A stretch of 63,853 nucleotides of DNA, the filler included, from Cystobasidiomycetes sp. EMM_F5 (taxonomy: Eukaryota), in assembly GCA_051047955.1 (NCBI GenBank). It is 7 parts of 7 records of this genome, joined end to end, with 100 filler letters (N's around TTAATTAATTAA, not from the genome) between each part and the next. Parts side by side here need not be neighbours in the genome. Positions count along the whole stretch, not along the records: positions 23,326 to 32,538 come from JBPGPT010000079.1; 6 more parts are not named here. The stretch is one strand, 5' to 3'. Below, piece after piece: positions 6,656 to 34,860 of the stretch. Below the pieces are notes generated by a model. It was given only the letters and a program-made list of their open reading frames with translations. It ran no database searches and was not told where the DNA came from. The translations under genes were made by a program, and so were the position numbers. The stretch's first letter is position 1; each line of letters opens with the position of its first letter.

Positions 6656-6706
6656 GGGGATATTTTTTCTTGCGAAAGTGTAATCAAAGTACTTTAAGGT
6701 ATGACA

Positions 6707-14012: not shown

Positions 14013-14274
14013 AAGCTGGGCAAGTTGCAGGTGTTGCTCGCGTACAGGAAACACAATGGTGCGAGGGGCGAGATCCGTTTGACGTGCGCTGCATGCCGGG
14101 GGTCATCTGAGCGACAAAGATTCGTCCTAAAGCTTTCAGGACAGCCAAAGGAGAGTCTGATTCGTGGAGAGACAAGGTATTCGCTCGTTCTTGCTGGCAG
14201 TGTGGATAGGTAGTGCAGTGGAGGGAGTGAAAACAGATTACAAAGCGATGTAGACACTGTTGGCCTCCGCACGT

Positions 14275-14545
14275 TCAATCGATTATTCCAAGTTCCAGGT
14301 ATGTGCGAACCGAAGTCGTATCGCTGATGATGGGACTCCCGACGCCCCCTTCCGTGCTGACGACCGTAGTAAGCGTTGTGGTGGAGGCCTGATGTTATTC
14401 AAGCTGTAAGAGTGGTGTCGGTAGTGTATACGCGGAGGATCGAGGCTGTATACACGGTTACAGTTGTAGTAGTCGTTAAAGCGCGGGCGGCAATCTCTGC
14501 CATGCCAAGGCTTGCGACAACTACGATTATAGTTGGGTTGGGCAT
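14275..14545 (-). pseudogene. Degenerate third paralog of the Thr-rich small secreted protein family
   Basis: MPNPTIIVVVASLGMAEIAARALTTTTTVTVYTASILRVYTTDTTLTA* (TGA at 14399-14401), then frameshifted TTTLTTVVSTEGGVGSPIISDTTSVRTYLEL. Confidence 0.7.
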
Positions 14546-14929
14546 AATGAGGAGAGACTGGCTGAATCACGACGATATCTTGCTGTTTGTGGGATATGGC
14601 TGTTGATGAAGGTCGATGGTTTGGAATGCAAGCCGAAATGGTGGCTGGGCGCGAGCTCTGGCTGGAGAGGCTGCGCTCCCGAGGGCGTGCCCCTAAGGTC
14701 AGCAGATCCGATTTTCGCATGCAACCCGCGCTTCAGGCGCGAGTGCGAGCCCACGAGATTTTACAGGCGCACCTTGCAGCGCTTGAGAGTGGACAAAGAA
14801 AGCGTCATTGCAAATCAGTTCGTGGCAGCACTCGATTTGACTACGGAACAGGCCGGGTAGAATCAAGAACAGACGCGGCGCAATGATTGATGATATACAT
14901 AGAACGATGGCAGGCACAATTAGGCACGA

Positions 14930-15205
14930 CTAGGAGCTGAGGTCCTCGTATTCGTAGACGTAGGTTGTATCGCCGACCATGGCACTGCCGACCCCTTCCT
15001 CCCTGCTAAAGATCGTAGTAACTGTTGCAGTGGGAACAACTCCTGCCGATTCCGACGCAACAAGGGTGGCTTCGGTTGTATATACTCGAAGAGTGGATGA
15101 TGTGTATGAGGTTACGGGAAATATCGTAGTTGTTGTGACCATGCGGGCAGCGGCTCCCGACATGCAAAAGCTTGCAGCAAGTATGATAGCATCTGAGGTG
15201 CGCAT
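14930..15205 (-). CDS. Small secreted Thr/Val-rich protein (91 aa), intronless
   Basis: Signal peptide MRTSDAIILAASFCMSGAAA. Shares RMVTTT, SSTLRVYTT, VPTATVTT, EGVG and YxYEDLS with 15872-16147. Confidence 0.75.
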   Translation of the reverse strand: MRTSDAIILAASFCMSGAAARMVTTTTIFPVTSYTSSTLRVYTTEATLVASESAGVVPTATVTTIFSREEGVGSAMVGDTTYVYEYEDLSS

Positions 15206-15871
15206 AGTGTGAGGATGCAATGAGGAGAGAGTCTGCTTTTTGCTGACGTGTAGGTAGAGTGAGTGAAAGCAGAAGAGAGGACAAACACAATCTATGGCAG
15301 AAAAGCGCCGTCCTCGGGAGGCCGTGCTCCAACGGCGTGCATCCGAGATCACCAGATCCAGTCTACGCATCACACCCGAAGTGCTGTAGCACAGTCTGAC
15401 CGATCTGGCTTGAGCACGCTGTGGGAAGCACGCGGCGGCTTGGGACTTATTCCCGCATACCGTTTGCCGACACGCAGTAACTTGTGGCATTACTGGAATC
15501 GGACAGTGACTCTGCGGGCTGCGATCAGAAGGCGTGGATATAGAAGACGGAAGTCAAGGCCGGTTGAGGCTGGAGCTGCAAAGAAACATGCCTGTCTCGC
15601 TGCAGACGATGAGCGGTCATTATAGACTTGCTTCAGACCGTTAGAATGGATTACAATGACACCACTATAGCGTTTGAAGTAGCATCTGCCGACTTGACGT
15701 TGCGCATTAGTCAGATACAGCAAGAAGTCTGGTTAGAGATTTTCCATGACATTTGCTCGGCGGTGGCGGCGACCGTAAACATGTGCATCACGGGTAGGAA
15801 ACAACACACACACAATGAAGGGGTAGTGGCACTTTACGGACGCCCGCCTTGCATGTTGCAAGGATGCATAG

Positions 15872-16147
15872 TTATCCGCTAAGATCCTCGTATGCGTAGG
15901 TTTCGGTGACGGCACTCATGCTGGGATTACCGACACCCTCTGACTTGCTGACGACTGTAGTGACTGTTGCTGTCGGCACAGGGCCTGATGACCCCGAAGC
16001 GACAAGTGTGGTTTGGGTTGTATACACGCGCAGAGTCGAAGAGGCATAGACGGGGACTTTGTAGACAGCGGTAGTGGTCACCATGCGACTAGCACACACT
16101 TGCGTACCGGCGCACGCAGCGAGTAGGAGGGCGATTGATGCGCGCAT
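15872..16147 (-). CDS. Small secreted Thr/Val-rich protein (91 aa), paralog
   Basis: Signal peptide MRASIALLLAACAGTQVCA; colinear with 14930-15205. Confidence 0.78.
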   Translation of the reverse strand: MRASIALLLAACAGTQVCASRMVTTTAVYKVPVYASSTLRVYTTQTTLVASGSSGPVPTATVTTVVSKSEGVGNPSMSAVTETYAYEDLSG

Positions 16148-16706
16148 AGTGACGATGTTGCCGGATGGAGCTGTATTGTTCAGGCACCGCTGACGATTTG
16201 GTAGGTACAGTATGAAGTTTGGAGCGGAGCGGAGTGACGACAGGAGCGCGAAAGATAGGAGCTTCGAGACGAATATTGCAACATATGTCTTGGCATCGCC
16301 CGATACGGCATCTACCCAGTGACGCTCATCTGACCTGCGCGGGATCAGGCCTGTAAGAAGGGAGCCGTCCGACCGTAGACGGGTGTCGGTGGTATACCGA
16401 TACTTTCGGAGTAAGATGCGAGAGATTGACAGTGATTCCGCCGCTTATCGGTCTGCGAGTGCAGGTCGTTGTACCAGCGCATTTCCGAGGGCATCTGCAT
16501 GGTGTACAGCAGCAGCCAGATTCCGACGAGAATGGCAGGCCTCGGAGAAGCTAGACCTAAGAAGCAACGCATGAAGGTGCTCAGCATTGTCAGCAAACGT
16601 GGGACGCGCCGCTACGAGCGACGATAGCTGTCTGCTCGATCAGAGGTTACAGCGTCTCCACCAGCACACGTTTCCGCTGGTATCCTGCACAGTCAGCTAG
16701 TAAGCC

Positions 16707-17375
16707 ATGGCCAGTCGTCAGCTCGTCATCAAGACTGGCGTCGTCAAGCGGTGAGTGCATGTCCAGGATGCCCTCTGGTGTATTCGACGTGCTGACGTGC
16801 TGGCGTTTCCATTGTCGGTCATCGAAATGGGCGATAATTGAATCAATAATGATGATGATGTTCCCTTCCTGCCTCTTCATGATCTCCCAAATACTTGCTG
16901 TCCTTCCACTCCACATCCAGACTCGTCGCTGAGCTTGCGGCGTATGAAAAGGAAGCCCAGGACAGGCTCGCAGACCTAGACAGAATCAATGGCAGCGATG
17001 CTGACGCGGCTGACAAGAGGCAAGCGGTGAGCGATGACGTTTCATGTGCGCTGGCCATAGTCCCGCTGATGGTCGTGTTATGACGGTAGGAACGGATACA
17101 CGCAGACTCTGCCCGTATGATCCCAGACACGACCAAGCGTCTGCAGAAAGCGGGCGAGGAATTGCGAGATTTGCTGGTGAGGGCGTACATTTTGTACTTC
17201 ATTACCAAGCTGATGGCTTCGCCAGACTGGACACAGCGCAGACTTGGCAGACTCGAAAGAACTCAAAGACGCGCAGGATGTACTTGCAAAGTATGATAGC
17301 CTAGGCAGTACAGCTTCAAAAGGACAGCAGGAAACTCTCATCAACGGACACAACCCGTCCGCAGGAGACTACTAG
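16707..17375 (+). CDS. RBL2: Tubulin-binding cofactor A (TBCA/Rbl2), 4 exons
   Basis: MASRQLVIKTGVVKR/LVAELAAYEKEA...DKRQA/ERILADSARMIPDTTKRLQKAGEELRDLL/TGHSADL...GDY*, with GT-AG introns. Confidence 0.85.
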
Positions 17376-18879
17376 GGTTTGGCCATGTCAACAAAATCCA
17401 CGTCTGCTTTGCTGTCCACATCGCTTCTTGACTGCAGCTCCACGTAAACGCGCGGCGGGAAAAGTAGGACTGGCTGCTTTTCTGCCTCCGATGGTCTTGA
17501 CTCATCCTTCGTTGTCTGCTGGCGAGTCGTCCGTACAATGATGCCGTTGTATCTGCTCCCTGTAGGCGTTGTCGACCCGCTCACAACTTCGTATCTCGTG
17601 CCGTTGTCAGTTGACGACAATTTCTTCAAGGCATTGTCAGACGTGCGAGAGCGCCATAGTGTTGGAAGATCCGTCTTGACTACCGCAACGAGTCCTGACG
17701 AGCGCGATCCCGACGGAATGAAATGGCCCGAATCTAGAGGAGATACCATGTCGTCAGAACATCCGTGTATTTTGCACACCGGCTTTTCGCGTGTGATGAA
17801 GAAGAGTGTCACGCAATTGATGACAACTGTGGATGCATCAAGATTAGCCTGCGCAGCATTTGCAGTTCCGCATCAGGGGTCGCTTGCCATCGGACACGCA
17901 TGATGTGAGGCACACAAAGCTTAGCTGATGGCCATTTGTGAGCGTGATGCCAAGAACGTTCAGGAATGTCGTCACCAGTGCTACACTGGAAGCAAAGAGA
18001 CTTGATCTAGCCAATTTGCGCGTCTGCCCGCCCACGCCAGATACGAGCGGCAATGAAAATCCGACGATCAAGTATAAGTTTAGAGGAACGTCAATGGCTA
18101 GGACAGGAACTGTCAGCAGAAGACTGTTAGTCTATTTTAGTGCCGGTTCTGCTTTGTATAACTGACCGGATGCCCATTTCTGAATACCGATATGGCACAT
18201 GCCACTCGCGCTGATGCTGTCGCTGCGTCCGATGATGAACACGATGAACATTACAACACCCCAGATATTGAGAGCGGCAGCGCCCGTCATGAACCACCGG
18301 CTTCTTAAGCGATCCTTCCAAGTAAGTCCGATGAGATCGTTTGCTGAGTGTACAATGAAGACTGTGAGATTAGTCGTCAGTATCGACAGGAAGTTGGATC
18401 GAAGCGATAGCACCCACGCCTCTCAACTGGAAGAACCAGAAATTGGCATCAAGGGCCATCTTAGTCAGGCAGTATCGTTAGGCGTTTAGTGCACTCACGG
18501 AGAAACCCTGTGACGGCAGGAGCATTCAGCAATCATCTGGTCAAGGAAGAGAATGCAATGACCAACCATAAACAAAGATCTTGCTTGAACAGTAGAGCAC
18601 GATACACAGCAGGATGCCCGCTTCACAGGCAGCACCGCTCACAATCGTCCCTACTCCAAAGAGCAAGATTGATGCTGCGAACGTGAACAGCCACGAATCG
18701 AGCAACGCCAGGAAGAAGAACTTCCGCGCGAGGGAACACTGTCTCGCAAAGAATTGCCTAGGTGAACCGATAGAGGCGGCACGCGATCCGAGCAACAGAG
18801 TGAGCACGACCAGTATGGTCAGAAAGTAAACGCAGACCAGTGGTCTTGTCCAGTCGTTGTCCGGCCATCCTCCGGTCAT
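17372..18879 (-). CDS. Uncharacterised fungal multi-pass (6-7 TM, GPCR-like) membrane protein
   Basis: Serial hydrophobic exons (LALLDSWLFTFAASILLFGVG...CEAGILLCIVLYCSSKIFVY; CHIGIQKWAS; SSVALVTTFLNVLGITLTNGHQLSFVCLTSCVSD) and a polar cytoplasmic tail. Confidence 0.7.
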
Positions 18880-20121
18880 AAGTTCTGAAGTGCCGCGCTG
18901 TCAGTACTTTGACCAGCAAGATAGACAGCGACGTATAGTGTGAGGTTTTGGGAAGGTCTTAACGGCAGCACAATATGGAACAGAGCGTATGTAGATCAGT
19001 TCACGCTTCCTCATCAATGGCTGCCTTTCGTCATGAGAATGTCCATGAAAACGTAATTGCTTCGGACCTAGCCCTTCTTTACAAACCTTAGCATGTAACC
19101 GGTAGCAACTATAAAGACTCGGTCACAGTCTGGCTTAGGCAGAGCCGTTGTATGAGGAATACTGCACATTGGGCCTTCAAAGGACAGAGACCTGTCCGCT
19201 TTAGGTAGGCTATTGAATAGAGTTCAGGCGGGCATCAACATCATTTGCAGGTTAGACGAGGTCAGCGCGACCAGCAAACGAAGTGAGCTGATGTAGATGC
19301 AGTCGTGTCGAGCGTGGGCGGGGTACATGCGGGGGTACATCTTGTGATGCAACCGCAGATGATCTCGCGGGAGCATTCGAAAGCGAACCGTCTCAATTCT
19401 TTTTCGGACGAGCGACGGCAATGAACGTCGTTGAGCACACTGGCAGAATCTAATTGGTGTCGCTGAGGAGTCCTGTTGCGCTGCGCTGCTGACTTTGAGC
19501 AGACCTGATACTGCTGCCGGAATCGTCAAAGGCGGTACTGCGACTCTGCTGGTCGACGCAGATTCGCTGGGCGAGCATGCTGTTGCTTGACCATTCTGCA
19601 AGACTGCTGGTGTTGCCCGACATCTTCTCGGTATGACCATGTCGAGCATGAACATTCGCAAAAAGGCAAAGAAGCAAACACGCATGGTTTGGCTACAGGT
19701 CACGAGTGACGTTCGAGAACAAGGCTTGCCCAACCGATTCGGGTCTGGCTACATCATGGATTGAGGTTGCTTATCCTCGGCGGCTGGTGTCACTCCATAG
19801 ACTGCTTTTAAAAGTACATGGACCAGCAGGATGAAATGGATTTTGAAGCCAAGTGTGGTGTCGGATCAGTGCAAGGGAGTGCCCTCAAGATAAAACAAGT
19901 CGTCCTGCCCCTATCTGGGGAGTCTTGTTGGAAAGAGGCGCCATATAAGCATTTTCACCCTTCTTGCACGCAGTTGATGACATTTCATTGGCCGAAGTAA
20001 GGCCCGCGCGTCGTTGAATGTGTTCCACACATCTGGACTACAAGTCTCTGACCGTTTTTCGACCAATAGGGCGGACATCGGCGGTTTGTTCTTGGTTGGA
20101 GTAGCGTCGAAGAATGATCCC

Positions 20122-21195
20122 TTACTTTTCGGATGATGCCGATGTGCTCTTGGCTCGTTCTGCAAAGTCTCGCAAGGCTTCCGCTTTCTCGCCTTCACCG
20201 TTATGGTCATCTGCAACTGCCTGGTAGATCTTTGCCAATCCGCGATACTGATCGCCAGTGTCGTGTCCTAGATTCGTGTCCACGTACGAGGCAATTTCTT
20301 CCATCTCTCCCACAAAGCGGTATGCTTTGCTGATACAGCCCGGAACGGTACGGGAGATGGAAGCCAGGAAAGCCGGCTGTGATTCCGACAACTCCTGCAG
20401 CAGAGCTTCTGCAGTGGCCGGTGACTGTTTGGATGCAGCTGTTGATAGTTATTGTTCAGTTTCGTTACCTTGTGATCCCCGCTCATCTAGGCGTACCGAG
20501 AATCATCGAAACAGCCAATCCTGTGAAGCCTTTGGTGAGACCTGCGTATGACAGCTTCAGAGCACTAGCTGCGCCATCGCCTTGACTATCCAGGATGCGT
20601 AGCTTCAAGCCTTTCCCGTTGTGCGATAGTTTCTCCCGAACGTGTTCGGTAGCTTCATGGTTCTTGCCTGACAGATAGATTGTAGGCTGATAGGAGTCTT
20701 TCGGCGGGCCCTGACAAGATCAAGAGTGTCAATGCGGTATGCGGATCAATCAACAAGACAGGCATTCACCCCGATAACACAACCATCCACATATCGAAAC
20801 TTGGGCTTGACGATGCCGGCAATCCGCTTGCTCGATTCGGGCGACACTGCATTGAGGTCGCAGTAGATGGGTGGATCGAGAGCATCTGCGGAGAATGATG
20901 TCTTGGGCGATGAAGATAGAGCGGCTGCTTCGTCCAAGGATGTGACGACCTCAACGAGCTTCTGAGCCAGCGCAACCGCTTCACTCGGAGGGACGACGGA
21001 AAGGATTATGGAACAATCGTTGACGACGCTCGCGAGTGTGCAGTCGTGCATCCCAGCCTCGCTGGCTCGTTGACGCGTGGAAGCTGAGCGGCCGTCGAGA
21101 TAGGTCAGTACCCGAATATCGCCAGTTGCAGTTAAGTGCTGGGCAATCCCAGAGCCCATTGCTCCTGCGCTGATGATGCCAATGGTCAGGGTCAT
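20122..21195 (-). CDS. NAD(P)-binding 6-phosphogluconate dehydrogenase-like protein (DUF1932-type C-terminus)
   Basis: TIGIISAGAMGSGIA Rossmann motif; YCDLNAVSP; YVDGCVIG; ASALKLSYAGLTKG; KAYRFVGEMEEIA. Confidence 0.85.
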
Positions 21196-21488
21196 GGTGC
21201 TGATAGCGCCCAATTGTGCTTCGAGTTGCACCGAATCAAGGTTACTTCGAATCAAGGTTACTATCTTATCAGATAACTAATTGAGCGTCTGAAGAAGTTC
21301 AGAGCTACTGATTGACGACTATACGGCAAGTACAAACTATTGCGTCTACAGATGTTCGCCAGACTAACACTTGCAGGCCGTGATGCTCACATGACAGTCT
21401 CCAGCGAGGTCCGCAAAGCCTCATCCCTTAATTGTTTCCCTCCGTGGCATGAGTGACCATTGATGGACGCAACTGGATTTGTCGTCGC

Positions 21489-23225
21489 TAATCTCTGGGA
21501 GGGAAAATCAGGCTTGTGAGCAGGGTTGACGATGTTTGGCCTCCGGACAGCAACATCTCCCGCCAGACTGTCGTACGAGCAACAAATCCCTGTCAGCCAT
21601 AAGCCGGCCTAATGGTTTCACGGTGCTCACACATCGAATGCTTGAAGATGAGGTCGTATCTTTTCGAGCCATGCCACTGGCCGACGCGCTCGCGATGCGT
21701 GCTCCACTTGAACGCGAGCTCTCGGACCATACACCCTGGCAGCGTGGTCTGCTGCGTAAGGTAGGTACGGATCCTCTCCATTTGCAAACCGTATGTAATC
21801 AATGCCAATTGCTTTGCCAAGTTCGGCTTCCTCCTCGCTAAGGACATCTCGCATACACCCTGCCCCGCATAACGGTCAGCCGACATGAAGAAGGAACAGC
21901 AAGCATACGAACCGAAAGCAAACATGTAGTCCATCGAATGATGAGCGAATTTACCACGACCCCACGCATTGTCCCCTGTACCGAGGCAGATATTAGCTTG
22001 ATTCTCGCCCCGACTGTCATCGCACATACATTCTGAACAATGATCCCAATGATACACGAAGAAGTTATTTGACCGATGGTTGTTGGCACTGTAATATGCC
22101 GGCGCAAAGAAAGCGATGTCCGAGACCAGAGCTTCAGCAGCCAGAAAATGCTCTTCCGATGTCATGTGCTCCGTTATAGCATACTGCGACAGCGTGTCGC
22201 TTACAATCTCTTCAGGCAGATGCTTGTCGATCATTGCAATCAACTCGTACGTGCAGAGCTTTTCCTGTACGAGCTCTGGCATGAAGATGATGCCTTCATC
22301 TATGAGTATGGTGATGTAATTTCGCATTTCAGCAAAAGAATGAAGAGGAGGCATTCGGCTCTTACGACGGCAGTCTCCCATCATTATCCGGCCTTTGAAG
22401 TCGTATCGTAGGCTCGGATACTCGCACAGCCGAGGAATGCGCTTGCCTTCGCCCAACAAGAAGCCATCATCGCACGGCGAGAAGGCAGCCACGCTGACAC
22501 CGTTTTGGAGAGGACTGGTGCATGCGGACAGATAGTCTGACGGTATGCGCCTCAATGCGGCCAATCGTTGAGCAGGCGGCAGATTGGTGTCTATGTCGCA
22601 GATCCTGAGCAGCTTATTGTAGATAACCTCGTACTCCTCCTCGGTGTAGATACCGCAAACAGGCAGCATCCCGCTCATGAGGATAACATTTTGGAACAGG
22701 ACATGGTCCGCCTTAGTCTGCAGTAACACATCTGCACTGGCGCCGCCGGCGCTTTGACCGAATACTGTCACATTGGCTGGATCCCCGTTAAAACTAGCGA
22801 TATGCCTGTTGAGCCAGCTTAGAGCATTCCGGATGTCCCTGACAGTTTGATCTCCTTTAGCGCAGGCCACATAGCGAAGCTGCAACTATCAACGTACCAT
22901 AATCCCCAATTCCCGTTGAGCTCTCCGCCATTATCGGTCTTTATGTCGGCACTGGCCAAGAATCCGTAGAACCCCACACGAAAGTTGAGATTGACGATGA
23001 TGGTCGGTCTCTCAATTTCGCTGGACAAGCTTGCCAAAGGTCGACCATCTACTATGGAGTCTGTGTTGCCACAAAGGAGAAGCGATGCATCGTCGTTAAC
23101 TACATTTTACAGACGCCGGACCAGTGCATCTCTTACAGTTAGCAGAGCCCCATGTAAAAGCACCACCGTGAATGTAGACCAATACAGGAAGGCTCTTCTC
23201 AGCATGCTCGCCTGGCGGAACGACA
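21489..23225 (-). CDS. Type-B carboxylesterase (alpha/beta hydrolase), 5' end lost at contig edge; 3' end approximate
   Basis: VLVYIHGGAF; IIVNLNFRVGFYGFLAS; GNWGLW; FNGDPANVTVFGQSAGG (GxSxG); AHHSMD. Confidence 0.85.
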
Positions 23226-23325
23226 NNNNNNNNNNNNNNNNNNNNNNNNNNNNNNNNNNNNNNNNNNNNTTAATTAATTAANNNNNNNNNNNNNNNNNNN
23301 NNNNNNNNNNNNNNNNNNNNNNNNN

Positions 23326-23379
23326 ACCTGAAGTCCGAAGAAGCCCGAAGTGGAGACTTCGGTGGGAGCTCGGCTCACA
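23326..23379 (-). repeat. Start of the 3' LTR of element 1 (TGTGAGCCGAGCTC...)
   Basis: Begins TG immediately after the PPT on the minus strand; matches the solo LTR end at 527-576. Confidence 0.8.
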
Positions 23380-23390
23380 TTCCATCCCCC
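23380..23390 (-). other. Polypurine tract GGGGGATGGAA of element 1
   Basis: Purine run abutting the LTR TG. Confidence 0.75.
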
Positions 23391-23655
23391 TAGAAAAGCT
23401 GAGTCCATATGACGAAAGCGTATGTGTGTAAACGTGTATATAGACCAGTTTCAGAGCTGTAGAAGCACTTTGGAAGTCACCGTATTACGTCCGTTGAACG
23501 GTTGTAGACTCCGAAGTGGCACGATCGTACTTCGAGAACAAAAAATTTTTGTCCGAAGTGGCGGAGGCGGGTTGTTTAACAACAACAACACCAACAGCAA
23601 CAGTGAGTTGTGTTTCGGTTTGTGTCGACTTCGTTGTGCTGACACTTCGTGGCAG

Positions 23656-25330
23656 ATGGCTCCATCCAAGCGACAATTTGCACAGGCTGCGGCCTCCAAC
23701 ACCGAGATGCGATTGCCAGGTCGCATAACAAGATCTGGTGCTTCTAGGAATCTGGAAGTGCCAATGGCGACTGTGAGTTCATTTTGTCAACTTCAAGCTT
23801 GCGCTGAAGTGGGTTCGCAGGGACCGTTTTCCGGTTCCGGCAGTCCTCGCGGCAGCTCGCCTGCGTCGACGATTGAAGAAGCACCGGAGGCTTCGCAGAC
23901 CTTGCAGGAGGCTGCAGCACCGGGTGCTGTCGAAGAAGCGGCTGGTCCAGCTGAGATTGGCGAAAAAGGGACCGAAGTAGGTTCCGAAGTGGCCGAAGTG
24001 CCTGCCGAAGTAGGAACCGAACTGGTTCCCGAAGTAGCTGGTGGACCGGCTGTTGAAGGAGAGGCGGCCGCCAACGACGTTCTGGATATAGCAGATCAAG
24101 ACGTCAACAACGTTGAGGCTGGCGAGCCGATTCATCACGCCGAAGATGCCGGCCTGCAGCTGGCTCAGCAAGAGGAGCAGGCGCCTGGCGGTGAACTGCC
24201 AGAGGAGGATATGCAGGGCCTCCAGATTCTGCTGGGCGGCGTCGTCATTCCAGGCGCAGCGGCGCTCGGTCCGGGACCAGCTCGCATAGTGGCTGGCAAG
24301 AGGGTCGACGGGGCCAGGTGCTCCAGGTGCCTCAAAACCGGAGTGCCAGAGCGCCTCTGCTTCCCGAAGGCTCCAACAGCGCCTAAGGGCTTTGCCAACG
24401 CACCGGCATGTTGCATGCGTTGCTCTTTGAAAAAGGAGGGCAAGCAATGCGAAAGTAGGTCCGAACTCGAGCAATACCAAGTATTAGCTGACGTTTGTTT
24501 CAGATCCACCTACTTGGGGTGACGGCGAGTTCGGCGCCGCAGCGTACAAGCTTGTGCGCGAGGAACTGGTGCAGTTCCTCAGTGAGTTTGACTTTGACTT
24601 CGGGCTGCGAAGTGGATCCGAAGTTGATCCGAAGTGGCCCGAAGTGGGTCGAAGTACGCGAAGTGACCCAAACTGATGTACTTTCGTCTTCTAGAGCCCG
24701 CGACAGATGCTGAGGGAGGTGCCAACGCGCCCGAAGCAAGCGGATCGACAGCCGTGAGGCGCCAATCAGGTGAGTAGTTGTACTTCGGTCGCGGAAGCTG
24801 AAGCTAAAGATGAAATTAGTTCCTCGACGAAAGTCGACTACGCCGGCTACACAAGTAGTCGCAACTCATCGCCCGGCTGGATGGAAGAAGGGCAAGAAGA
24901 GGGCCGCTCGACAGTCCGACGACGAAGAGGAGCAGCAAGAAGAAGAAGCTTCTTCGGAGGCAGGCAAGGAGTATGATGAGGACCTCGCTCCTCTAGGCGT
25001 CGGACCCAAGACTGGGGCACAGGGAAGGAAGCGACCCCGGATGGGCTTTGTCCCGAATGCACCTCGCCCTGGTGGGCCGGCCCGTCTCGCCCAAGAGAAG
25101 TGGTCGTCACGCGGACCGCAAAATACGTCCATGACAACGAACTGGTGTCGGCCGGGTTTAGTAGGGCCGCACCTAATACCGAAATGGAAATGGCCACCGC
25201 CTTGCAAGTCTTGGCAGACGAGCGAAGCTTCACTGGCGATGCCATTTTGCTCCAGGTTCTATCTCGAGGACTGAAAGCGGCGTGGGACGAATTCTGGCGC
25301 CTTTGGGAAGGCATGAGTCAACCCGAGTAA
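23656..25330 (+). CDS. Antisense accessory gene of element 1; spliced, acidic low-complexity protein with Zn2Cys6-like motif
   Basis: Introns 23773-23820, 24455-24503, 24582-24694 and 24770-24819 (plus 23603-23655 before the ATG) have GTRAGT/GTAGGT donors, branch-like CTRA sites and YAG acceptors. They join an open frame ending at 25274; a frameshifted alternative tail ends at 25330. Motif C-x2-C-x9-C-x17-C-x2-C-x8-C; basic NLS-like KKGKKR and RKRPR. Confidence 0.75.
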
Positions 25331-25731
25331 TGATCGGGCGGGTGGATGGGTTTTTCTGTTTTGTTTTCTTGATGTTGTAAACGTTTTGTCTTGTAATGTT
25401 AGGGGTTTCTTGACGAATGTTGTATTTTCCAGTAATTAGTTTCATTTCCAGAACGAATGTGAGTCTTTTTCGGTTGACCAGAGTGATTGAGCGAATTGAG
25501 TCTTGATGATTGAATGAGTCTTGAAGATGAGATGAAGTTCATTGGTGTGGAAGTGATGCGAAGGGAAAAAAGATGTTCTGAAGTGGATACGAAGTGGAGT
25601 TGAAGTGAAAATCTTGAGGAATGAAGTAGTCTTGACGAGTCCAAACGAGTGTATAGATGAGTAAACGGTTATTTCTTGAGGGTATATATACGTCCAGTGA
25701 GTTTTTTTTTGAAGGTTTGGTGTACTTCGGT

Positions 25732-28543
25732 CTACTTCGGTAGAGCCGAAGTGGTCCGAACTGCGGCCGAAGTGGAGGGAACTTCTTCAGTTCTCTTGGT
25801 AAGCCTCCACTCACGTACTGCAGCAGGGCTATCCTTGTTAATGACACTAACAGGCTCCCATGACGGATCGGGGTAGCCTTCCCAGTGACATTCATATTTG
25901 CGAATAGGTTTCTGGGTCTTTTCGTCCATTATGAGTGCTTCATTGGTAATCTTGTCAAGCTTCCAGTACATGTCTCCATCGTCGTTCATACGAGTTGGTC
26001 CTACACGCTGAGGCTGTTCTCGGTCGGCAACGGAGTTCGGTTCCGGTTTCCGAAGTAGTTTCAGAAGTGAAACAGGAAAGGTACTGTGTTTTCGATTGAA
26101 AGGAGGAGTTAGTAGTAGACGAGCAGCATTATCGCCGATCATCTTTTCAATGACAAATGGTCCTACAAATGGGTCTTTTAGTTTTGAACTTCCCACAGTT
26201 CCGAAGTGCCTTGTCGAGAGCAGCACTTCATCTCCAGCAGCGAACTTCGCGGCGACATGTGAAGAATCCCAGCGAGCTTTGTGAGCTTCAAATGCTCCTT
26301 CAACAACAGCATCGTGAGCTCTGTCACGCGCGTGTTCTATCATTGAAGCGATGTTCTCAGCGCTAGGGTCGACTTCGACCGAAGTGGAGATGGTTCCCGC
26401 TATAATTCCAAAAGGAGACTTGGGAATCCATCCTCGCTCCAAAATGTAGGGAGCTTTGTTGGTTACAGCGTGCGGTGTCGAATTATAAGCGTACTGAAGT
26501 GCCGGAAGTAGGTCCACCCAGTCGTGCCTGAATCCTTCTTTGTCTCGATGTTCAAGACCGAAAGCACAGTATCTACGGATCATATCGACCAGTGTCTGGA
26601 TAATTCTTTCAGCTAACCCATCAGTCTGTGGATGATGAGCTGTAGACATGTTGAGTTTGACTCCCAGTCTTCTTTGGAGGTACTTCCAGAAGTCCGAAGT
26701 GAACTTCGGGTCTCTATCCGAGATGATGATCCGAGGAAAGCCTACGTCAGAGTAACAGTGTTTCCAGAAGACAGTGGCGACGTCTTTGGCGGTGGCTGTA
26801 TCCCGAAGTGGCAGAAAGCGAGCCGACTTGGTCGCTCTGTCACATATAGCCAGTACGCTGTTGAATCCCGAAGTGGCCGAAGTAGGAAGTGCGGTTACGA
26901 AGTCCATATGAATGATGTCCCAAGGCCTCTTCGGGTTCTCAATATGCTGGAGCAATCCTGCTTGCTTACCTGTGGTACGTTTAGATAGTGCACAAGTAGT
27001 GCATGTCTTGCACCATGTCTCAACGTCGCTGTTCATATCAGGCCACCAAGCGTGTTGCCGAACTCGTTCTAGAGTTCGGTCAAATCCGAAGTGCCCCGAA
27101 GTGAGCTGGTCATGACAGGCAGCGATGATCATCTGCTTTGTAGGAGTGTCTCCAATGCAGGGAAGTGCAGATACACCTTTCCGAAGATGTAGAGCATCGT
27201 CGAAGAGGAAGAACTGCCCACTTCGGAAGTACTCGAGTGTACTTCGGGGAAGTCCGACTTCGGCTGCCTGTTTGGTATCTTCGGTTTCACTTCGAAGTGC
27301 CTCTCTAATGCGAGCTAGACGCGCATCAAGGTCTATTCCTGCCTTGATAGTGGCATCTAGATCGTCGTTGAGTTCGGCGATGTTGATGGCGTAGATAACT
27401 GCAACGTTATCTGTCAGTTCGGCAGCGGGATTACTCACATCATTGGGTAATGCGCATCTGCTGAGTCCATCAGCATTCTTATTGGTTACACCAGGTTTAT
27501 GGTGAATTGTCATTTGTCCCCTGTGCTCTTGGATAGCCAATTGCCAGCGTAACATATGTCGGTTGGGGTTCTTGACCGTCATTAACGTCTGAATTGCTAC
27601 GCAATCAGTGTATACTGCGAAGGTAGAGCCATCCAGGTAATAATAGAGCTTCTCTAGAGCCCAGATTAGTCCTAAGCATTCCAGCTGTGTTGCGGCATAG
27701 CGTTCTTCTGCCGGGCGGAGACGTCTGGAGATGAAAGCAATGGGTCGTTCCTTGCCTTCTTGAATTTGTGCAAGCTCTGCACCCAGTCCTTCAAAGCAAG
27801 CGTCTATATACAGCCGAAAAGGCTGATTCCAGTCTGGCATTGCTAGGATTGCGGGATCTAGAAGGGCTTTCTTCGAATCTTCGAAGGAAGTCTGACAAGC
27901 AGCGGTCCATTCCCATATAACATCTTTACTGAGCAGTGAGGACATAGGACGGAGTATTTTAGCCAGATCCTTGATGTGCGCTCGGTGATAATTGATAAAT
28001 CCCAGGTACGCCTGAAGTGTCTTCAAGTTCCGAGGGGCTGGCCAGTCCCGAACTGCAGCCAGTTTGTTATCATCGATAGCAAGATACAAACCTGATACAT
28101 GCCGTCCTAGAGCGATGAGATCTGAGCATCCGAAGTGGCACTTCGGGATCGAGACAGTGAACCCGGCCACTTCGAGTGCACTTAAGATTTTCCGAAGTGA
28201 CTCGATGTGCTCTTCAAAAGTCTTGTTGAAGATGAGGATGTCGTCAATATATACTATAGCCCATCCTTCCTGAATATACTTCCCTAGCACAGTGTTCATG
28301 GCGTGCTGGAAGTGTACAGGCGCGTTCTTCAGTCCGAAGGGCATGCGTACGTACTCGTAAAGTCCGCGGTACGTAGTAAATGCGGTATATTGAATGGAAT
28401 CCTCGTGTACCCAGCATTGATGGAAGCCTTTATTCAGATCCAATGTTGTGAAGTACTTAGCGTCTTTAAGTAATGCTAAGGTTTCCTGAATGCGGGGCAA
28501 CGGATAGACGAAGGCCTTTGTGTAGTCATTCAAAGCCTTGTAG
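25732..28543 (-). CDS. pol: Pol of element 1: reverse transcriptase, RNase H, integrase, chromodomain
   Basis: YPLPRI, LDLNKGFHQ, MPFGLKNAP, YIDD, YIDAC, HDQLTSGHFG...CTTC, HMDFV, ISDRD, DGLAER, GPF, YECHWEGYPDPSWEP. Confidence 0.93.
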
Positions 28544-31500
28544 TTAGTAGGGTTAGTAGGGAGAGTCGCGCCTTTTCGCCTTTATAGACCATGACAATGG
28601 GAGAGGAGAACTGACTCTTTGATGGTCGAATAACTCCTAGTTTGAGTAGGTCATCGATGATTATTGAGATGTCCTGTTTTGTCTTCGGCGAAGTGGGGTA
28701 AGGAGCGGCTCTTAGCTTTACCGGTATTGGGTCTGGTAATTCAACTTCGATCTGTAGAGGTGGCATCTTGCATTCGCCAAGCTGCCTGTCTCCAAAAGCA
28801 AACGCCATCTTGTACTTAAAGAGTACTGCTTTTATAACCCGAAGTTGATCCGAAGTCAGCCCCGAACTGAACTCGGCCTTCCGAAGTGCAGTTCCGAAGT
28901 CGTCTTCTACGAGAGCCATTACCTGTAAAGGATTAGCTGTGGTTACCTGAGACGTTCCCAACGCATAGCGGTTTGGGTTTGTCCCAATCTTGAGCCAACG
29001 GCCTCGAGCGGAGAACAGGTTGAATCCGTATCTGTTCATCACATTGGATCCCACCAGGATCTGTACTCCTGTAGTTGGTAGGTCTAGTACGGTGAATGAT
29101 GCCTGAATTCGAACACTACCTCGCGGGTGTGGGAAAAGCAGAGGTGTCAGATACGTTCCAATAGTCTGAAGTCGGGAGCCGAAGGCAGTGGCTACGGCTT
29201 TGGCTCCGATGATGGTAGTGACATAGCCCGGATCCAATGATTCAAGTAGTGACTTAGAGATCACAGAGATTGATGCACCAGTATCGAGTAGTACCTTGAT
29301 TGGTTTGTTGCATACTACTGCAAGTACTGTCGGAAGTACTCCGAACTGGTCATCCGAAGTGGTCTTGACGGGCTGTAAGTCTATGATGCGGTGCGGAAGA
29401 ACGGTGTTATTCAGCATACTCATAGCAGCCTCATCAGTCAGTGCTACTGGATCATTAAAAGCCCTAGTCTTCTTTGGCGAAGTGCGGACCGAAGTGGTCT
29501 CGCCAACTTCAGAAGTGAAGTGAACTTCGGGCTGAAGTTCCGAAGTGGAAGTTGCACTTCCAGTAGTATCCTCTGCCCTGCATAGAGCCGCAACTGTGGC
29601 TAGTTGGTGCTGAAGAGTCTCGAAGTCACCATCGTCGCGGTCCCAGGGTCCTATTTCAGGATACATGGTATTGTTGTCGTCGGTGTCGAGAGTTCGGACC
29701 GCATTAATATGGTAGACTACTTCGTCCACGGGATAGTCGTCGTAGTGACCATCTTCTTGGTCGTACTCGTCTTGAGCTGGTTCCTGTTGATCCAGTTGTT
29801 CGTCCAGTTCGTCTTCTTCTTCGGGCACTTCAGTAAGTGCATGGACACTTCGGTTGGGGCATTCTGCCTTAGTATGACCCGGCTTCTTACATTGGAAGCA
29901 GAGTCTACGTTCCCGAAGGTCATCGCGTTCTGCCTGACTCATCTGTGGTCTGAACGAAGAAGCCTTCTTCGGTTCCGAAGTGGCCTGCTTGGAAGAAGCA
30001 TATCGCTGCTCCGAAGTAGACTTATCCGCACTGGAAGAAGAACTGTAAGCCTGAGGACGTTGTGTAGCTCTTACTGAGTGGTTATTAGACCTCTGCGGAG
30101 GAGCTGGCCGCGTCTCTCGCCGAGAAGTCAGGTCCGAAGTGCGTCCCCGCTCTTCGTGCCTGGCGTTCTGCTGAAAGAGAGCGATAAAGTCCGTAAGCTT
30201 GCTGATACCAGGAACGAGTGGCTGTATTACTGTAGCTAGTACTGCTGGCGACACTTGATCCAGAAGTTCGTAGCACATGTCGTGAATACCTCGACCTGGA
30301 TCCACAGTTCGTGAAAGTCTGAAATATTCATTGCAGAACTTCGTCGGATCATGTTCGCTCTTAGGGAAACGGTAGCCAGCCAGCTTATTACGCTGTCTTC
30401 GTTTCCAATCTGGAGTTTCGAAGTAATCTACGATTTCTTGCTTCCAGTCTTGCCATCCGATTGGAACATCAGGATCAAGGACTCGGGTAGAGTACCAAGC
30501 CCTAGCTCTTCCGGTAAGTAGTTCGGGAAGGAGTCCAACTATCCAATTCTCGGGGACATTACCGTAGAGAATCCTAGTGTCGATGCGTGTAAACCAATCT
30601 TGATGGTTGCTTTCTGGATGCCCGTCGTAACTCGGAAGATCACTGGCTTTAGGCTGGTTGGGTTTGATCTTCTGAACATAGGACGTCCCATCAGTGTATA
30701 CCTCGGCCTCTGTTACTTCCGGGACTAGTATTGGATCTTTAGCCAGGACTGGAAGTACACTTCGGCGGTTCGGAAGTAGGGCGGGCTCAGAAGTGGCCCG
30801 AAGTGGTACTGAAGTGGGCCGAAGTGGTACTGAAGTGGGCTGAAGTGGCACTTCAGGTCTTCCCGAAGTGAATCTGACTTCTGAAGTGTACTTCGGCAGA
30901 TTTTCAGGCCTTGTCCGAACTGGAGGTGCAGGCGCAAGTGAAGCCAAGGTTGGTTCAAGCTTAGACCGATGGTCGTAAAAGATGTCTCTTGCATCTCTAT
31001 AAGCAGCTCCGGCGGCTTGAAGTTCTCCAGTAGTGTATGCTAGTGCCTTGACAACTTCTTGAAGTGTCGTAGTGACTCTACCGAAGCTTTCTACTTGTTG
31101 CTCCACCTTTTGAGCTAGCTGTTCTTGTCGATGCGTGTGCCAAGTATTTGCTTCTATCATGACATCGACACTGTTGCCAAACTTGCGAAGTAGTCGCTGC
31201 AAGTCTTGGGGTGGAGCGTGGGGATGACTAGGATGAAGATTCGAGGAAGCAGCAACCGGCTCGCTAAACGCAGGAGACTTGGGAAGCGCCGGTTTGAAAC
31301 GAGGATCTTCCATATAGAACTGCTGTGGCTCAACAAGAGTGGGGAACCATGGGCGGAGCGGCGAGCGGAGAAGCAAGCTCTGGTCTCCGGGGTTGTTTAC
31401 CTTTGTCCTGAGTTGAAATAGCAGGTGTGGGAGACTGTGGCTCTTCCAATCCCAAGTTGTTGTCGGGTAAATCAAAAAATTTACTAGACGTTTGAGAAGC

Positions 31501-31710
31501 CTCGATAAGGGCGAGTGCTTCTGGTGTCGCCATCGTGTTAGGGTAATGTACAACCCGACTGAGAGGCGGAGTGTACTGATTTGCCTGTGGCAGAGTAGAT
31601 GTACTCTGTACCGGAGTCGATTCTCCAGGTACTTCGGGTACCAAAGGGAGGTACCTGAATCGACGGGTGGGTAGTGGTGTTCCCAGGGTGATGGGAGTTC
31701 TTGAAGCCAT
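28544..31710 (-). CDS. gag: Gag-protease part of element 1 (frameshifts near 31343 and 28550)
   Basis: MASRTPITLG start; LTGRARAWY capsid-like region; CFQCKKPGHTKAEC; LLDTGAS; the RT N-terminus (IRPSKSQFSSPIVMV) is in the same frame. Confidence 0.88.
30790..30857 (+). repeat. 21-bp tandem repeat CCGAAGTGGTACTGAAGTGGG within gag
   Basis: About three units; encodes PLQPTSVPLRPTSVPLRATSE. Confidence 0.8.
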
Positions 31711-32119
31711 AGTTGAGATCTTTAGTAGACCTCGCGCTACCAGGTGAAAGCCTAGTAACCGGTAGGTCGAAGCTGAAGTGCACTTCGGTGGGATCCGAAG
31801 TGGTTCCTGGGAGCCGAAGTGCAGAGGCGAGACTTCGGTGTACCGGAAGTACTAGCTAATCTGAGGATCTTGTACTAAATCAGCTATGGGTCAAGGTAAT
31901 AGGAGCTTACAATGGTAGATCTGGATTGCCGAGATCTAGAAGTGCCTATTGATGTATAATTTGTACTTCGTCTTGGCCGAAGTACACTTCTCAGACTTCT
32001 ACTTGGTAGAAGTGGGCGAAGTACGATATTAATTATTTAATATCGTTAAAATACCGTTAAATATTATAATAAAAACTTATTATAAAATTCCGTATTGATT
32101 GGTGCTAAGGAAAGGTAGC

Positions 32120-32439
32120 CCGAAGTGGAACCGAAGTGTACTTCGAGTCCCCGAAGTGGATCCGAAGTGGGGCCGAAGTGCAGTTCGGTGGCGTTGGGCG
32201 AGCCGAAGTGCAGTTCGGGTCCGAAGTGCGGTCCGAAGTAGAAGTACCTTTCCGAAGTGAGGATAATAGAAGAACTGGATAGAGTATTGCTTCTAGAATG
32301 TACTCAAAGAAGTATTACGCTTAACCAGAAGTGGATATCGATTGTATTGAAGAAACCGAAGTGCACTTCGGGGTCCGAAGTGAGTCCGAAGTGCGGCCGA
32401 AGTGACCGAAGTGTGCCTTAAGTCGAAGTGGCACTTCGG
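32120..32439 (+). repeat. Clusters of CCGAAGT heptamers in the 5' leader of element 1
   Basis: CCGAAGT at 32120, 32131, 32151, 32162, 32173, 32203, 32221, 32233, 32252, 32356, 32375, 32386, 32397 and 32406; ACTTCGG at 32365 and 32433. Confidence 0.92.
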
Positions 32440-33095
32440 GCACGGGTTGTCTTCTGACAATTCAATATAAAATAGATGTAGGATCGATTGTAGATGTAGA
32501 ATACGTTGTAATATGTATTATATTAAACGTAGATGTAANNNNNNNNNNNNNNNNNNNNNNNNNNNNNNNNNNNNNNNNNNNNTTAATTAATTAANNNNNN
32601 NNNNNNNNNNNNNNNNNNNNNNNNNNNNNNNNNNNNNNTGTTTGTATGAATCGTTGAGACCAATGCCATTACCGCGTTGCCGAGGAACCGAGGCCGAGCA
32701 GGAGACCTGATGGTGGGCTTCATTTGATGACTAGTACTTCTCGAAGAGCTGGGGATTCTGCAGCGCCCGACACAAGTCTCACCATTCGACACCGAGCTGT
32801 CTCAGTCAGTCGACAAACTCACTTTGCATCATCATCATGCCTGCGCGTGGTGTCCGAAAACGGTCTCTGGCCGGATTCGCACGCTTCGCGTACAGGCCCA
32901 CACTGTCAGTATAGCTCGGTCACACGCTGAAAGGATACTCGCAGGTCTCACAAGTTACAGATGTGATACGAAAGTCTGCGCGGGCGTCACTCTCCGCTTG
33001 CTCCCAACCATATCGCCGCTTGATCCTATCGGAAGATCTCTACCAGCGTCATAAGCTATCGTGCTTTCGATACTATCTCCCTCCTTTCGACTGCG

Positions 33096-33554
33096 CATCA
33101 TCATATCATCACGACTTTCGCGTGTCTTGCCATCGCCTCGCACGTTACTGGAGCCGCGCCGGTTCTAATGACTGTGACTCTGGGTTCATATCATCCCGTC
33201 CTTTCCGAGAGCGTGGTCGGCGCGGGCGCGACATTCACATTTGCCGATGCTATGAATGGCCGGACTGTGAAACCAGGTCCTTTCACTATGTCATCTGGCA
33301 TGCTCTACTTTGAGCCAACGCAGACTACAACGTTGGACGTGCCCGACACTACAGGCAGCGCTCAACTCGGTCATGCTCCGGCTAACCGTCAATGCTTGTG
33401 TTGTGAATTGGCCGCAATACCTCTCCCTACACGACCTATCATCACCTGTGCCCAGTGTAGGGTACATTGTAGTTTTCTCATCCATAATCTGTCTCTTTTT
33501 CCGTGGAAGAGCATTGCGCATCGGCCGATTATTGCGTATGCGGCAGTCATTTAA
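33096..33554 (+). CDS. Small protein, paralog of 34168-34494 (no in-frame ATG before its signal-like segment; gene or relic)
   Basis: HHIITTFACLAIASHVTGAAPVLMTVTLGSYHPVLSESVVGAGATFTFADAMNG...GPFTMSSGMLYFEPTQTTT. Confidence 0.55.
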   Translation, partial: HHHIITTFACLAIASHVTGAAPVLMTVTLGSYHPVLSESVVGAGATFTFADAMNGRTVKPGPFTMSSGMLYFEPTQTTTLDVPDTTGSAQLGHAPANRQCLCCELAAIPLPTRPIITCAQCRVHCSFLIHNLSLFPWKSIAHRPIIAYAAVI

Positions 33555-34167
33555 GAAGCGTCGCTAAATGCAGAATCCACCTAAGACTGCGCGGGAATGC
33601 GGTTCTGCCTGTGCTCTACTTTTTCCCGCAGTATGTATGTCACGCAATAAGCTTCAGGTCATGGCTGGGGAATCGATGGTTTTCCACTAATTCTAAACCG
33701 TACCAGATTGATTTACATCACTACAGGAGGCTCGCCGAAGTAGATCCACTTTCTCTAGTCGTCTCCTCGGTGCACAGATGCTCTGTCTAGGCATTGCTTG
33801 CTTGACGGGTCGTGCAGGGAGGCAGCCTTTGTGACAGAACACCATCCTCCTTTCGTCCAGACTCGGTTCTGGCAATCGATCGATGGAGCTTTGCCGGTCG
33901 TCTAACCCCACTCTTTCATCGGGGACAATCACAGCCGGCAAGGGTCCAAGTCGGATTCTACCCCTCGAGTAGGCGGTGAAATAAAGGGTTCTGAAGAAAA
34001 GAGAGTGGCCAAAGGTATTCGTCTGCGCCTCCGAACATTGAGTCTCGAGTGCCGCAGATTCGCTCTCCTCCTCTCTGCACATCGCAAAGTCCGATAATCC
34101 GAATCACACCAAACAGTATCTCCCTCATCATCCACAACAAGCACTCCTCTCGACTACCTCCTCGATC

Positions 34168-34494
34168 ATGCAGTTTGGCAGAATCACCCGTCCACATCAC
34201 CTGTTCGCAGCGTCAGTGGGCTACCTTGCCTGCTTTACGTGTTTTACAAGAGCAGCCCCGGTTCTCACGACGCAAACACTAGGCTCATACCACCCCGTCA
34301 CAGCTGTAAGCGAAGTGGGAGCTGGGAAAGTTTGGACCTTCGCCGATTTTGCACAAGGCTACATCATCATGACGGGCCCTTTCAAGATGTCGTCCGGCTG
34401 GGTGTACTTTGAGCCTAGTCGGACTGTGACGACCGACATTTATTCGGAGACAATGGCCTCCGAAAGCAACACTTCCACCGCGAAGCCCAATTGA
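34168..34494 (+). CDS. Small probably secreted protein (108 aa)
   Basis: Signal-like N-terminus, then AAPVLTTQTLGSYHPV...VGAGKVWTFADF...GPFKMSSGWVYFEP, conserved with the 33.1-kb copy. Confidence 0.65.
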   Translation: MQFGRITRPHHLFAASVGYLACFTCFTRAAPVLTTQTLGSYHPVTAVSEVGAGKVWTFADFAQGYIIMTGPFKMSSGWVYFEPSRTVTTDIYSETMASESNTSTAKPN

Positions 34495-34591
34495 CCGGTA
34501 TAGCGAGACACGACTGCGATTGTTGCATTCTGTTGGTACATTAGGCATCATGTTAAATGTATCGCACACTTGACGCATCGAGCTTACGCCA

Positions 34592-34860
34592 GATTGGATC
34601 TGCTGACTCGGATGAACCATCTCCACTGACGCCTCGTCTTCGTTCATCGTATGTCTCCAACTGCACAAAGCCGGATCAAAGAGCAAGTCCCTACACGCCT
34701 GTTCAGCGTTGGTGTTTTGAACGCCTTGTTCTGCGACTTTCTCCCACATCGATTGACTCTGCTTACTCGTATGAACCATCTCTACTGATGCATCGTCTCG
34801 TTCATCGTATATCTTCAACAGTACGAAGCTAGATTACAAGGCAAGCCCCTACGCGCCTGT
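34592..34860 (+). repeat. Imperfect direct repeat, about 110-bp unit, period about 158 bp
   Basis: GATTG...TCTGCT.ACTCG.ATGAACCATCTC.ACTGA.GC.TCGTCT...CAAG.CCCTAC.CGCCTGT at 34592-34702 and 34751-34860. Confidence 0.75.

Follow-up and report, generated by a model that had tools for sequence, protein, structure and literature searches.

The stretch of DNA analysed here (63,853 nucleotides, hereafter the window) comes from the Pucciniomycotina yeast Cystobasidiomycetes sp. EMM_F5 (assembly GCA_051047955.1) and is made of seven contigs. Contig 3 (23326-32538, JBPGPT010000079.1) is 9213 bp long and, according to Pfam searches, consists of a single Ty3/Gypsy retrotransposon (element 1), whose gag and pol genes are on the minus strand. 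The plus strand of this apparently intact element harbors, between the pol stop and the start of the 3' long terminal repeat (LTR), a gene model with five or six introns (23656-25330). This antisense feature is real and internal to the element, and probably represents a protein-coding accessory gene of the kind described as antisense open reading frames (ORFs). The parts of element 1, in window coordinates, are the following.

23326 to 23379, minus strand: first 54 bp of the 3' LTR, at the contig end; the minus strand reads TGTGAGCCGAGC...
23380 to 23391, minus strand: polypurine tract (PPT)-like AGGGGGATGGAA, directly upstream of the LTR start (putative position)
23437 to 23443, plus strand: TATA-like TATATAG upstream of the antisense gene, a putative promoter
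23603 to 23655, plus strand: intron 1, 53 nt, GTGAGT..GCTGAC..CAG, in the 5' untranslated region (UTR); its acceptor adjoins the ATG
23656 to 23772, plus strand: coding exon 1, 39 codons
23773 to 23820, plus strand: intron 2, 48 nt, GTGAGT..CAG
23821 to 24454, plus strand: coding exon 2, an acidic low-complexity half with a period-12 CCGAAGT array (23972-24037), then the Cys cluster
24319 to 24450, plus strand: codons of the seven-Cys cluster (residues 206-249), with a sub-threshold DUF3716 match
24455 to 24503, plus strand: intron 3, 49 nt, GTAGGT..GCTGAC..CAG
24504 to 24581, plus strand: coding exon 3
24582 to 24694, plus strand: intron 4, 113 nt, GTGAGT..TAG, with six tandem CGAAGT copies at 24608-24659
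24695 to 24769, plus strand: coding exon 4, 24 codons, too short for a codon test
24770 to 24819, plus strand: intron 5, 50 nt, GTGAGT..TAG
24820 to 25105, plus strand: coding exon 5, with KKGKKR and GRKRPR basic patches and an acidic run
25106 to 25164, plus strand: frame break, which the GenBank model bridges by a sixth intron (59 nt, with GTCACG as weak donor) but which may equally reflect an indel in the present copy
25165 to 25330, plus strand: C-terminal coding segment (54 aa), modelled as helical; stop TAA at 25328-25330
25331 to 25731: spacer of about 400 bp between the convergent antisense gene and pol, with TGTA at 25376, 25392 and 25421
25732 to 28581, minus strand: pol ORF, with reverse transcriptase, RNase H, integrase (H2C2, rve, SH3) and a weak chromodomain; pol stop at 25732-25734
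28530 to 31711, minus strand: gag-protease ORF (open to 31721), ATG at 31711, with weak CCHC knuckle and aspartyl protease matches
31730 to 31742, minus strand: primer-binding site (PBS)-like TGGTAGCGCGAGG, 22 nt before the gag ATG
31745 to 32538, minus strand: probable 3' part of the 5' LTR, an A/T-rich block with dense CGAAGT/ACTTCG; boundary deduced from the PBS

The initial annotation of this region placed the gene opposite gag-pol and inside the PPT boundary, which is borne out by the pol stop at 25732, the PPT at 23380-23391 and the LTR at 23326-23379. Its five canonical introns were likewise recovered, all with GT..AG borders; four donors read GTGAGT and one GTAGGT, and branch-like sites of the CTGAC/CTGAA/CTGAT type lie 8-25 nt before the YAG in all five. 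The leader (23444-23602) contains no ATG, and the first exon ends in an (AAC)8 run. Because the acceptor of intron 1 abuts the ATG, the spliced start reads ..AACAATGGC, and the A found at position -3 after splicing provides a good start context. Retention of intron 2 is possible because this intron is in frame and stop-free, and one product of the locus (P0001) reads through it. No AATAAA follows the stop codon in 25331-25731; the three TGTA of the spacer are within 100 nt past the stop.

The four coding introns had also been proposed to join a single frame of about 452 aa extending to 25330. The length holds, as 452 aa are encoded from the ATG at 23656, but this frame closes at 25272-25274, and the stop at 25328-25330 lies in another frame, reachable via a frame change near 25105. 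GenBank already contains a model of the gene, 'hypothetical protein EMMF5_006536 [Cystobasidiomycetes sp. EMM_F5]' (451 aa, P0002 below), with no visible note of its retrotransposon context. This model, the product of an independent gene finder, has the same five introns plus a sixth one, 25106-25164, with GTCACG as donor.

The predicted protein corresponds to its first description, which gave it an acidic N-terminal half, a Cys pattern and basic patches resembling nuclear localization signals. Between residues 40 and 200, there are 30 D/E for 5 K/R, and 75 A/G/P/S, and the stretch TEVGSEVAEVPAEV is encoded by the period-12 CCGAAGT-type array (23972-24037). All seven cysteines are found within 44 residues (206, 209, 219, 236, 237, 240, and 249), in the pattern CX2CX9CX16-17CX2CX8C, which includes two CxxC pairs; the basic patch KKGKKR is located at 324-329 and followed by GRKRPR. 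Most of the 451-aa protein is predicted to be disordered. In a single-sequence AlphaFold2 (AF2) model of P0002, the helices at 388-447 are the only part reaching a predicted local distance difference test score (pLDDT) of 60-84.

The likeness to a transcription factor initially put forward, for which the acidic disordered half, the Cys cluster and the basic patches are the whole basis, was not substantiated by these analyses, and neither was a Gal4-type cluster. Zn2Cys6 clusters of the Gal4 type obey the spacing rule CX2CX6CX5-12CX2CX6-8C. The spacings in element 1 (X2, X9, X16-17, X2, X8) and in a second element described below (X2, X6, X14, X2, X9) both fall outside this rule, the Cys region of neither element matches Zn_clus (PF00172) in Pfam at E ≤ 10, and searches of PDB sequences with the Cys region returned unrelated chance matches only, with no Gal4-type chain. 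The sole family listed was DUF3716 (PF12511), with an E-value of 0.037 and 14.4 bits for a 61-aa fragment, over profile positions 7-57 of 59; the nearest named ESM Atlas cluster, at 0.85, carries DUF3716 on 28% of its members, which we take as a lead only. In Zymoseptoria tritici, this family is reported in two accessory proteins, REP9-1 and REP9-2, encoded by the IS3EU DNA transposon (PMC8232023). It is also reported in Fusarium PSC58, said to be orthologous to Neurospora crassa NCU05718 (PMC10776026), which was shown to bind double-stranded TTAGGG repeats directly and had no known DNA-binding domain (PMC4650311). The DUF3716 link is a lead, and a small fungal Cys domain that would bind repeated DNA and recur in transposon accessory genes is a reasonable but unproven idea.

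Several lines of evidence bear on whether the region is translated at all. The 2.3-kb region from pol to the PPT might be a repeat-rich noncoding tail, possibly giving rise to an antisense noncoding RNA that feeds a control by double-stranded and small interfering RNAs, and the 451-aa model would then be a set of chance ORFs stitched together. In keeping with this, the protein is an orphan and mostly predicted to be disordered, its ORF is in part a tandem 12-nt repeat, a weak sixth intron was required to complete the gene model, the predicted frame of exon 4 does not win the codon test, and antisense retroelement transcripts can be noncoding (PMC7264820). On the other hand, the plus strand of 23393-25734 contains an unspliced ORF of 366 aa, whereas the best ORF averages 107 aa (standard deviation 39, maximum 281) in 300 first-order Markov sequences simulated from the same interval with up to six strict-donor introns allowed, none of which reaches the real value; the minus strand gives 155 aa unspliced and 196 aa spliced. 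Four GTGAGT donors are present within about 1.2 kb of the gene, exactly where the frame would close, as compared with one or two per strand in 8-14 kb of host contigs. Using a host codon table (1626 codons from Pfam-supported host ORFs), we found the predicted frame to be the best of six in eight of nine gene segments, the miss being the 24-codon exon 4; the antisense ORFs score 0.10-0.27 bits per codon and gag and pol 0.04-0.10. The grouping of the cysteines with their two CxxC pairs, the ATG-free leader and the good start context also argue against a noncoding tail, which we regard as unlikely: the length of the ORF, the density of donors and the codon statistics trained on the host all favor real coding.

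For comparison, three host introns were inferred by hand from Pfam domains split between neighboring ORFs (NPL4, catechol dioxygenase and carboxylesterase), an automatic screen for host introns having been dropped as too noisy.

48456 to 48612, 40160 to 40217, and 22835 to 22895: the three inferred host introns (each about 53-60 nt; donors GTACGA, GTAACA, and GTACGT; branch sites of the CTAAC/CTAAA type)

Judging from this small sample, the introns of the element are of host size, but have stronger donors of a different type.

The frame break near 25105 can be read in two ways, and an indel in this copy explains it as well as a sixth intron does. If it is an indel, contig 3 would carry a pseudogene copy of a real family, in which the insertion or deletion of 1 or 2 nt near 25100 severed the C-terminal helical domain and the sixth intron is a repair by the gene finder. 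Past 25104, the codon statistics disfavor the read-through frame and favor that of the last 54 codons, the change taking place at about 25105-25165, and no other part of the protein than these 54 aa is modelled with confidence. This copy may be broken, moreover, because 22 alternative GT-AG pairs can bridge the two frames, none of them with a consensus donor. Against a pseudogene stand the intact gag and pol ORFs and the host size of the 59-nt intron, and we hold this explanation to be quite unlikely.

The hexamer CGAAGT/ACTTCG occurs 98 times in contig 3, with a strand bias (54 CCGAAGT vs 19 ACTTCGG), at 8.3-8.4 per kb in gag and pol, 8.7 in the antisense gene, about 1 in host contigs, and 34 in the probable LTR (31712-32451). 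Because its density in the antisense gene equals that of gag and pol and is far above that of the host, the gene is made of element-type sequence, in line with the initial claim that it is built from the element motif; the arrays of exon 2 (23972-24037) and intron 4 (24608-24655) are real. In the gag and pol ORFs, plus-strand CGAAGT copies occupy each of the three codon phases. The gag ORF also contains three in-frame repeats of a 21-bp unit, GAAGTGGGCCGAAGTGGTACT (30790-30852), so that the motif is also part of the gag protein.

This motif content also bears on the origin of the gene. That a cellular intron-bearing gene was recently captured beside pol, or that the contig was mis-joined, so that the gene would not be an evolved part of the element, is very unlikely indeed. 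LTR elements are known to capture genes, usually in one or a few copies (PMC7264820), a single copy is seen here, and the contig comes from a fragmented assembly. On the other side, the element-type motif density extends through exons and introns, the gene lies inward of the PPT and of the LTR start, the same layout exists in a second element, and no paralogue was found in any searched library, which argues against recent capture of a host gene, given that the library includes at least this protein of the organism's NCBI set. The initial annotation went further and saw in the accessory gene a long-term component of the element; motif content and the lack of a host paralogue do speak against recent capture, but with one visible copy and no homologue they do not establish age.

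Relatives were sought in several collections. A word-indexed protein library queried with P0002 or its parts returned only the protein itself, and scans of metagenome and viral contigs with the antisense protein revealed no related locus. When the integrase half of pol was used instead, no viral contig matched, and seven metagenome loci were found (30-55% identity), none of which has a comparable downstream antisense Cys ORF; the closest (L002, 55%) ends inside pol.

Contig 6 (49476-56933) contains a second minus-strand Gypsy element (element 2), whose pol is 32-35% identical to that of element 1 and stops at 51709. It also has an antisense ORF.

50640 to 51502, plus strand: antisense ORF of element 2, exons 50640-50907 and 50961-51502, 269 aa, stop at 51500-51502

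This ORF is convergent with pol and lies about 200 bp past the pol stop. Its ATG at 50640 comes after a TTTATAAGG site and an ATG-free leader, its intron (50908-50960, 53 nt) reads GTATGT..TCTGAT..TGTAG, and both exons win the codon test with the host codon table. The protein has CX2CX6CX14CX2CX9C near the N-terminus, followed by a KGKKR patch and an acidic tail. When the proteins of elements 1 and 2 are compared, six cysteines line up, at a BLASTP E-value of 13. The Cys region of element 2 has no match in Pfam, DUF3716 included, and the DUF3716 cluster nearest to element 1 comes at rank 13 (0.77) in ESM Atlas, again a lead only. A homologue search with the second exon retrieved only the ORF of the window itself, and its single-sequence AF2 model is poor (mean pLDDT 41.7). 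The LTRs, PPT and 3' boundary of element 2 were not located in contig 6. The layout common to the two elements is suggestive of a recurrent arrangement, and is not evidence of common descent.

We therefore return to the reading we prefer, to which we would give a probability of roughly 0.55, namely that element 1 carries an accessory gene belonging to the class of antisense ORFs located between pol and the 3' LTR, with the following putative mode of expression. An internal TATA-type promoter just inside the PPT would drive a plus-strand transcript, from which the host spliceosome would remove the intron of the 5' UTR and those of the coding region, four or perhaps five in number. The resulting mRNA would be translated into a protein of about 450 aa made of an acidic disordered N-terminal half, derived in part from the CCGAAGT repeat of the element, a seven-Cys zinc-type cluster, possibly related to DUF3716, basic patches for nuclear targeting, and a short helical C-terminus. 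Such a protein would most likely be a nuclear, nucleic-acid-binding regulator of its own element. The introns would persist because the element replicates via its opposite-strand genomic RNA, in which they are no substrates for splicing; the initial argument that antisense introns survive retrotransposition follows sound and established logic. The passage of an antisense intron through the sense genomic RNA is the very principle of antisense-intron retrotransposition reporters.

Several observations weigh against this reading. The gene model is known here from DNA sequence alone, and a single copy is visible (one contig, one annotated protein). A phmmer search of 1.84 billion cluster representatives gave three matches, all of them products of the antisense-gene locus, and in shuffle tests the proteins of elements 1 and 2 show no similarity (long comparison, z = -0.2; Cys regions, z = +0.3). 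As to DUF3716, the match does not attain the Pfam gathering score of 22 bits and is reduced to 8.8 bits when the entire protein is used. The AF2 model of P0002 has a mean pLDDT of 44.5 and a predicted template modelling score of 0.22, with 356 of the 451 residues below 50. Part of the codon signal is due to the Glu/Ala/Gly/Val-rich repeat, and the GTGAGT donors of the element differ from those of the three host introns. Finally, there is the frame break itself, with the nonconsensus donor of the GenBank bridging intron and of all 22 possible bridges.

In the carrier, the pol domains are in the Gypsy order (Pfam E-values: RVT_1, 1e-27; RT_RNaseH, 4e-29; Integrase_H2C2, 3e-21; SH3_Tf2-1, 1e-9; rve, 5e-7), and a C-terminal Chromo match is weak (E-value 0.0037, 17.6 bits, under the cut-off of 25.1). 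The gag-protease and pol ORFs are intact, with 1063 and 949 aa, and overlap by 52 nt in different frames (28530-28581), as expected under programmed frameshifting. Upstream of gag, the minus strand has TGGTAGCGC at 31734-31742, which may be a primer-binding site for tRNA-iMet and which is the sole exact TGTAGCGC-type primer-binding motif in the window, where an exact 9-mer is expected about 0.5 times by chance. It is this PBS reading of 31730-31742 that makes 31745-32538 the probable 3' part of the 5' LTR, and that led us to reject the alternative of 31712-32451 as a leader, with TTGTCA at about 32452 as the LTR end. If it holds, contig 3 would comprise a single internal region flanked by LTR pieces, like an assembled collapsed repeat. 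At the other extremity, the last 54 bp of contig 3, in the direction of the element, match contig 1 (527-576) at 85%, the match ending exactly at the TGTGAG boundary. The corresponding LTR-like piece of contig 1 (357-576, minus strand) begins with TGTGAGCCGAGC... (85% over 54 bp) and is otherwise unrelated to contig 3; its alignment with 31712-32451 gave motif-level matches only, and no matching target-site duplication was seen for it.

The remainder of the window was surveyed more briefly. The contigs are ordered by decreasing length and joined by N44-TTAATTAATTAA-N44 spacers, and neighbors in the window are not neighbors in the genome.

1 to 13912, 14013 to 23225, 23326 to 32538, 32639 to 41455, 41556 to 49375, 49476 to 56933, and 57034 to 63853: contigs 1-7
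13913 to 14012, 23226 to 23325, 32539 to 32638, 41456 to 41555, 49376 to 49475, and 56934 to 57033: spacers

Contig 1 starts with a plus-strand ORF (3-143) ending in ..YNACRKAGKKCDGEFS.., which recalls half a Gal4-type motif and has no Pfam match. A tRNA-like stretch noticed by eye in contig 6 (50090-50170, with a GGGTTCGAGTCCC T-arm and a D-arm-like TAGCTTACTGGTC) was not confirmed, as neither ARAGORN, with and without introns, nor Rfam reported anything there. Contig 7 (57034-63853) has 33-40% GC and genes for tRNA-Phe, tRNA-Ile, and tRNA-Leu, and is probably mitochondrial DNA. Among ORFs of at least 110 aa, only 9 of 66 have a Pfam match, and host genes appear to be split into many short exons.

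The antisense kind of accessory gene is already known. Additional ORFs that lie between pol and the 3' LTR and run opposite to gag-pol have been reported in maize Grande (gene23, with its own internal promoter and a nuclear product), rice RIRE2, Silene Retand, and Phaseolus PvRetro13, and, among fungi, in Boty of Botrytis cinerea and Sclerotinia (PMC7264820). In 97% of Retand clusters, there is an antisense TRP28 protein with a presumed DNA-binding role, next to tandem arrays (PMC11963269), and Tat-lineage extra ORFs have PMD/Tr28 domains (PMC4408406). The plant genes share place and orientation with the gene described here, and their elements also have tandem repeat arrays in the region from pol to the 3' LTR, DNA binding being suspected (PMC7264820, PMC11963269, PMC4408406). 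Their carriers belong to non-chromovirus plant lineages; TRP28 (PF04195) and PMD have no match at E ≤ 10 in our antisense protein (Pfam), and the word 'intron' does not occur in PMC7264820 and PMC11963269. A fungal parallel is brtn, the antisense gene of Boty, attributed to Zhao et al. 2011 (PMC7264820, PMC8365987, PMC4227169), which belongs to a Gypsy element with a chromodomain-type integrase (the chromodomain match of element 1 being weak) and, like our gene, lies between pol and the 3' LTR. Its host is an ascomycete, whereas ours is a basidiomycete yeast, and the gene described here, with its five or six introns and its Cys cluster, showed no relation to brtn in library searches; the comparison with brtn is by description only. 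In the literature searched, which included few subscription journals, we did not come across any antisense gene with several introns described for an LTR retrotransposon.

More distant parallels can be drawn. HBZ of human T-cell leukemia virus type 1 is located at the 3' end of a retroelement, in antisense orientation, and codes for a nuclear regulator (PMC7264820, PMC11963269). Its promoter is in the 3' LTR and its product is a basic leucine zipper (bZIP) protein, whereas here no bZIP was found and the putative promoter is inside the PPT. HBZ also has a spliced form. Like the antisense protein, REP9-1 and REP9-2 are accessory proteins of a fungal transposon with a small Cys-containing domain (PMC8232023), but their carrier is a class II element of an ascomycete, and the DUF3716 match here has 14.4 bits, compared with the 22 required. 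A possible analogy is offered by VANC, the anti-silencing protein of Arabidopsis VANDAL, in which an element-encoded factor goes with short motifs accumulating in its own family (PMC5735166); there is no homology between the two proteins, and VANDAL is a plant DNA transposon. What is new here is the host lineage (a Pucciniomycotina yeast), the five or six spliceosomal introns and the Cys-cluster protein.

Both elements have their own repeated motif: CCGAA/TTCGG is enriched about six-fold in each (12-13.5 per kb vs about 2), and element 2 favors GTTCGG (TTCGG and GTTCGG at 8.9 and 3.4 per kb, vs <1.3 and 0.3 in host contigs) and has a small TTCGG array 60-90 nt upstream of its antisense TATA-like site. 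Binding of the CCGAAGT motif by the antisense Cys protein is a conjecture. In its broadest form, a long shot, the Cys-cluster protein would be a sequence-specific binder of the CCGAA-core motif of its own element (CCGAAGTG arrays, and GTTCGG in element 2), and each Gypsy family would have its own protein-motif pair as a self mark for activation or resistance to silencing, that is, a retrotransposon counterpart of VANC whose introns are kept by antisense placement.

The accessory genes of LTR retrotransposons are poorly understood, and the antisense ones of plants and Botrytis have no established function. If our reading is correct, the gene would illustrate, in nature and within an intact basidiomycete Gypsy element, how introns outlast retrotransposition only when placed in antisense, and would extend the range of antisense accessory genes to yeasts amenable to culture and transformation. 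The gene would also offer a testable pairing between a small Cys-cluster protein and a short motif pervading the element and its LTR. If the DUF3716 link is true as well, a widespread fungal domain would be tied to accessory proteins of both class I and class II elements.

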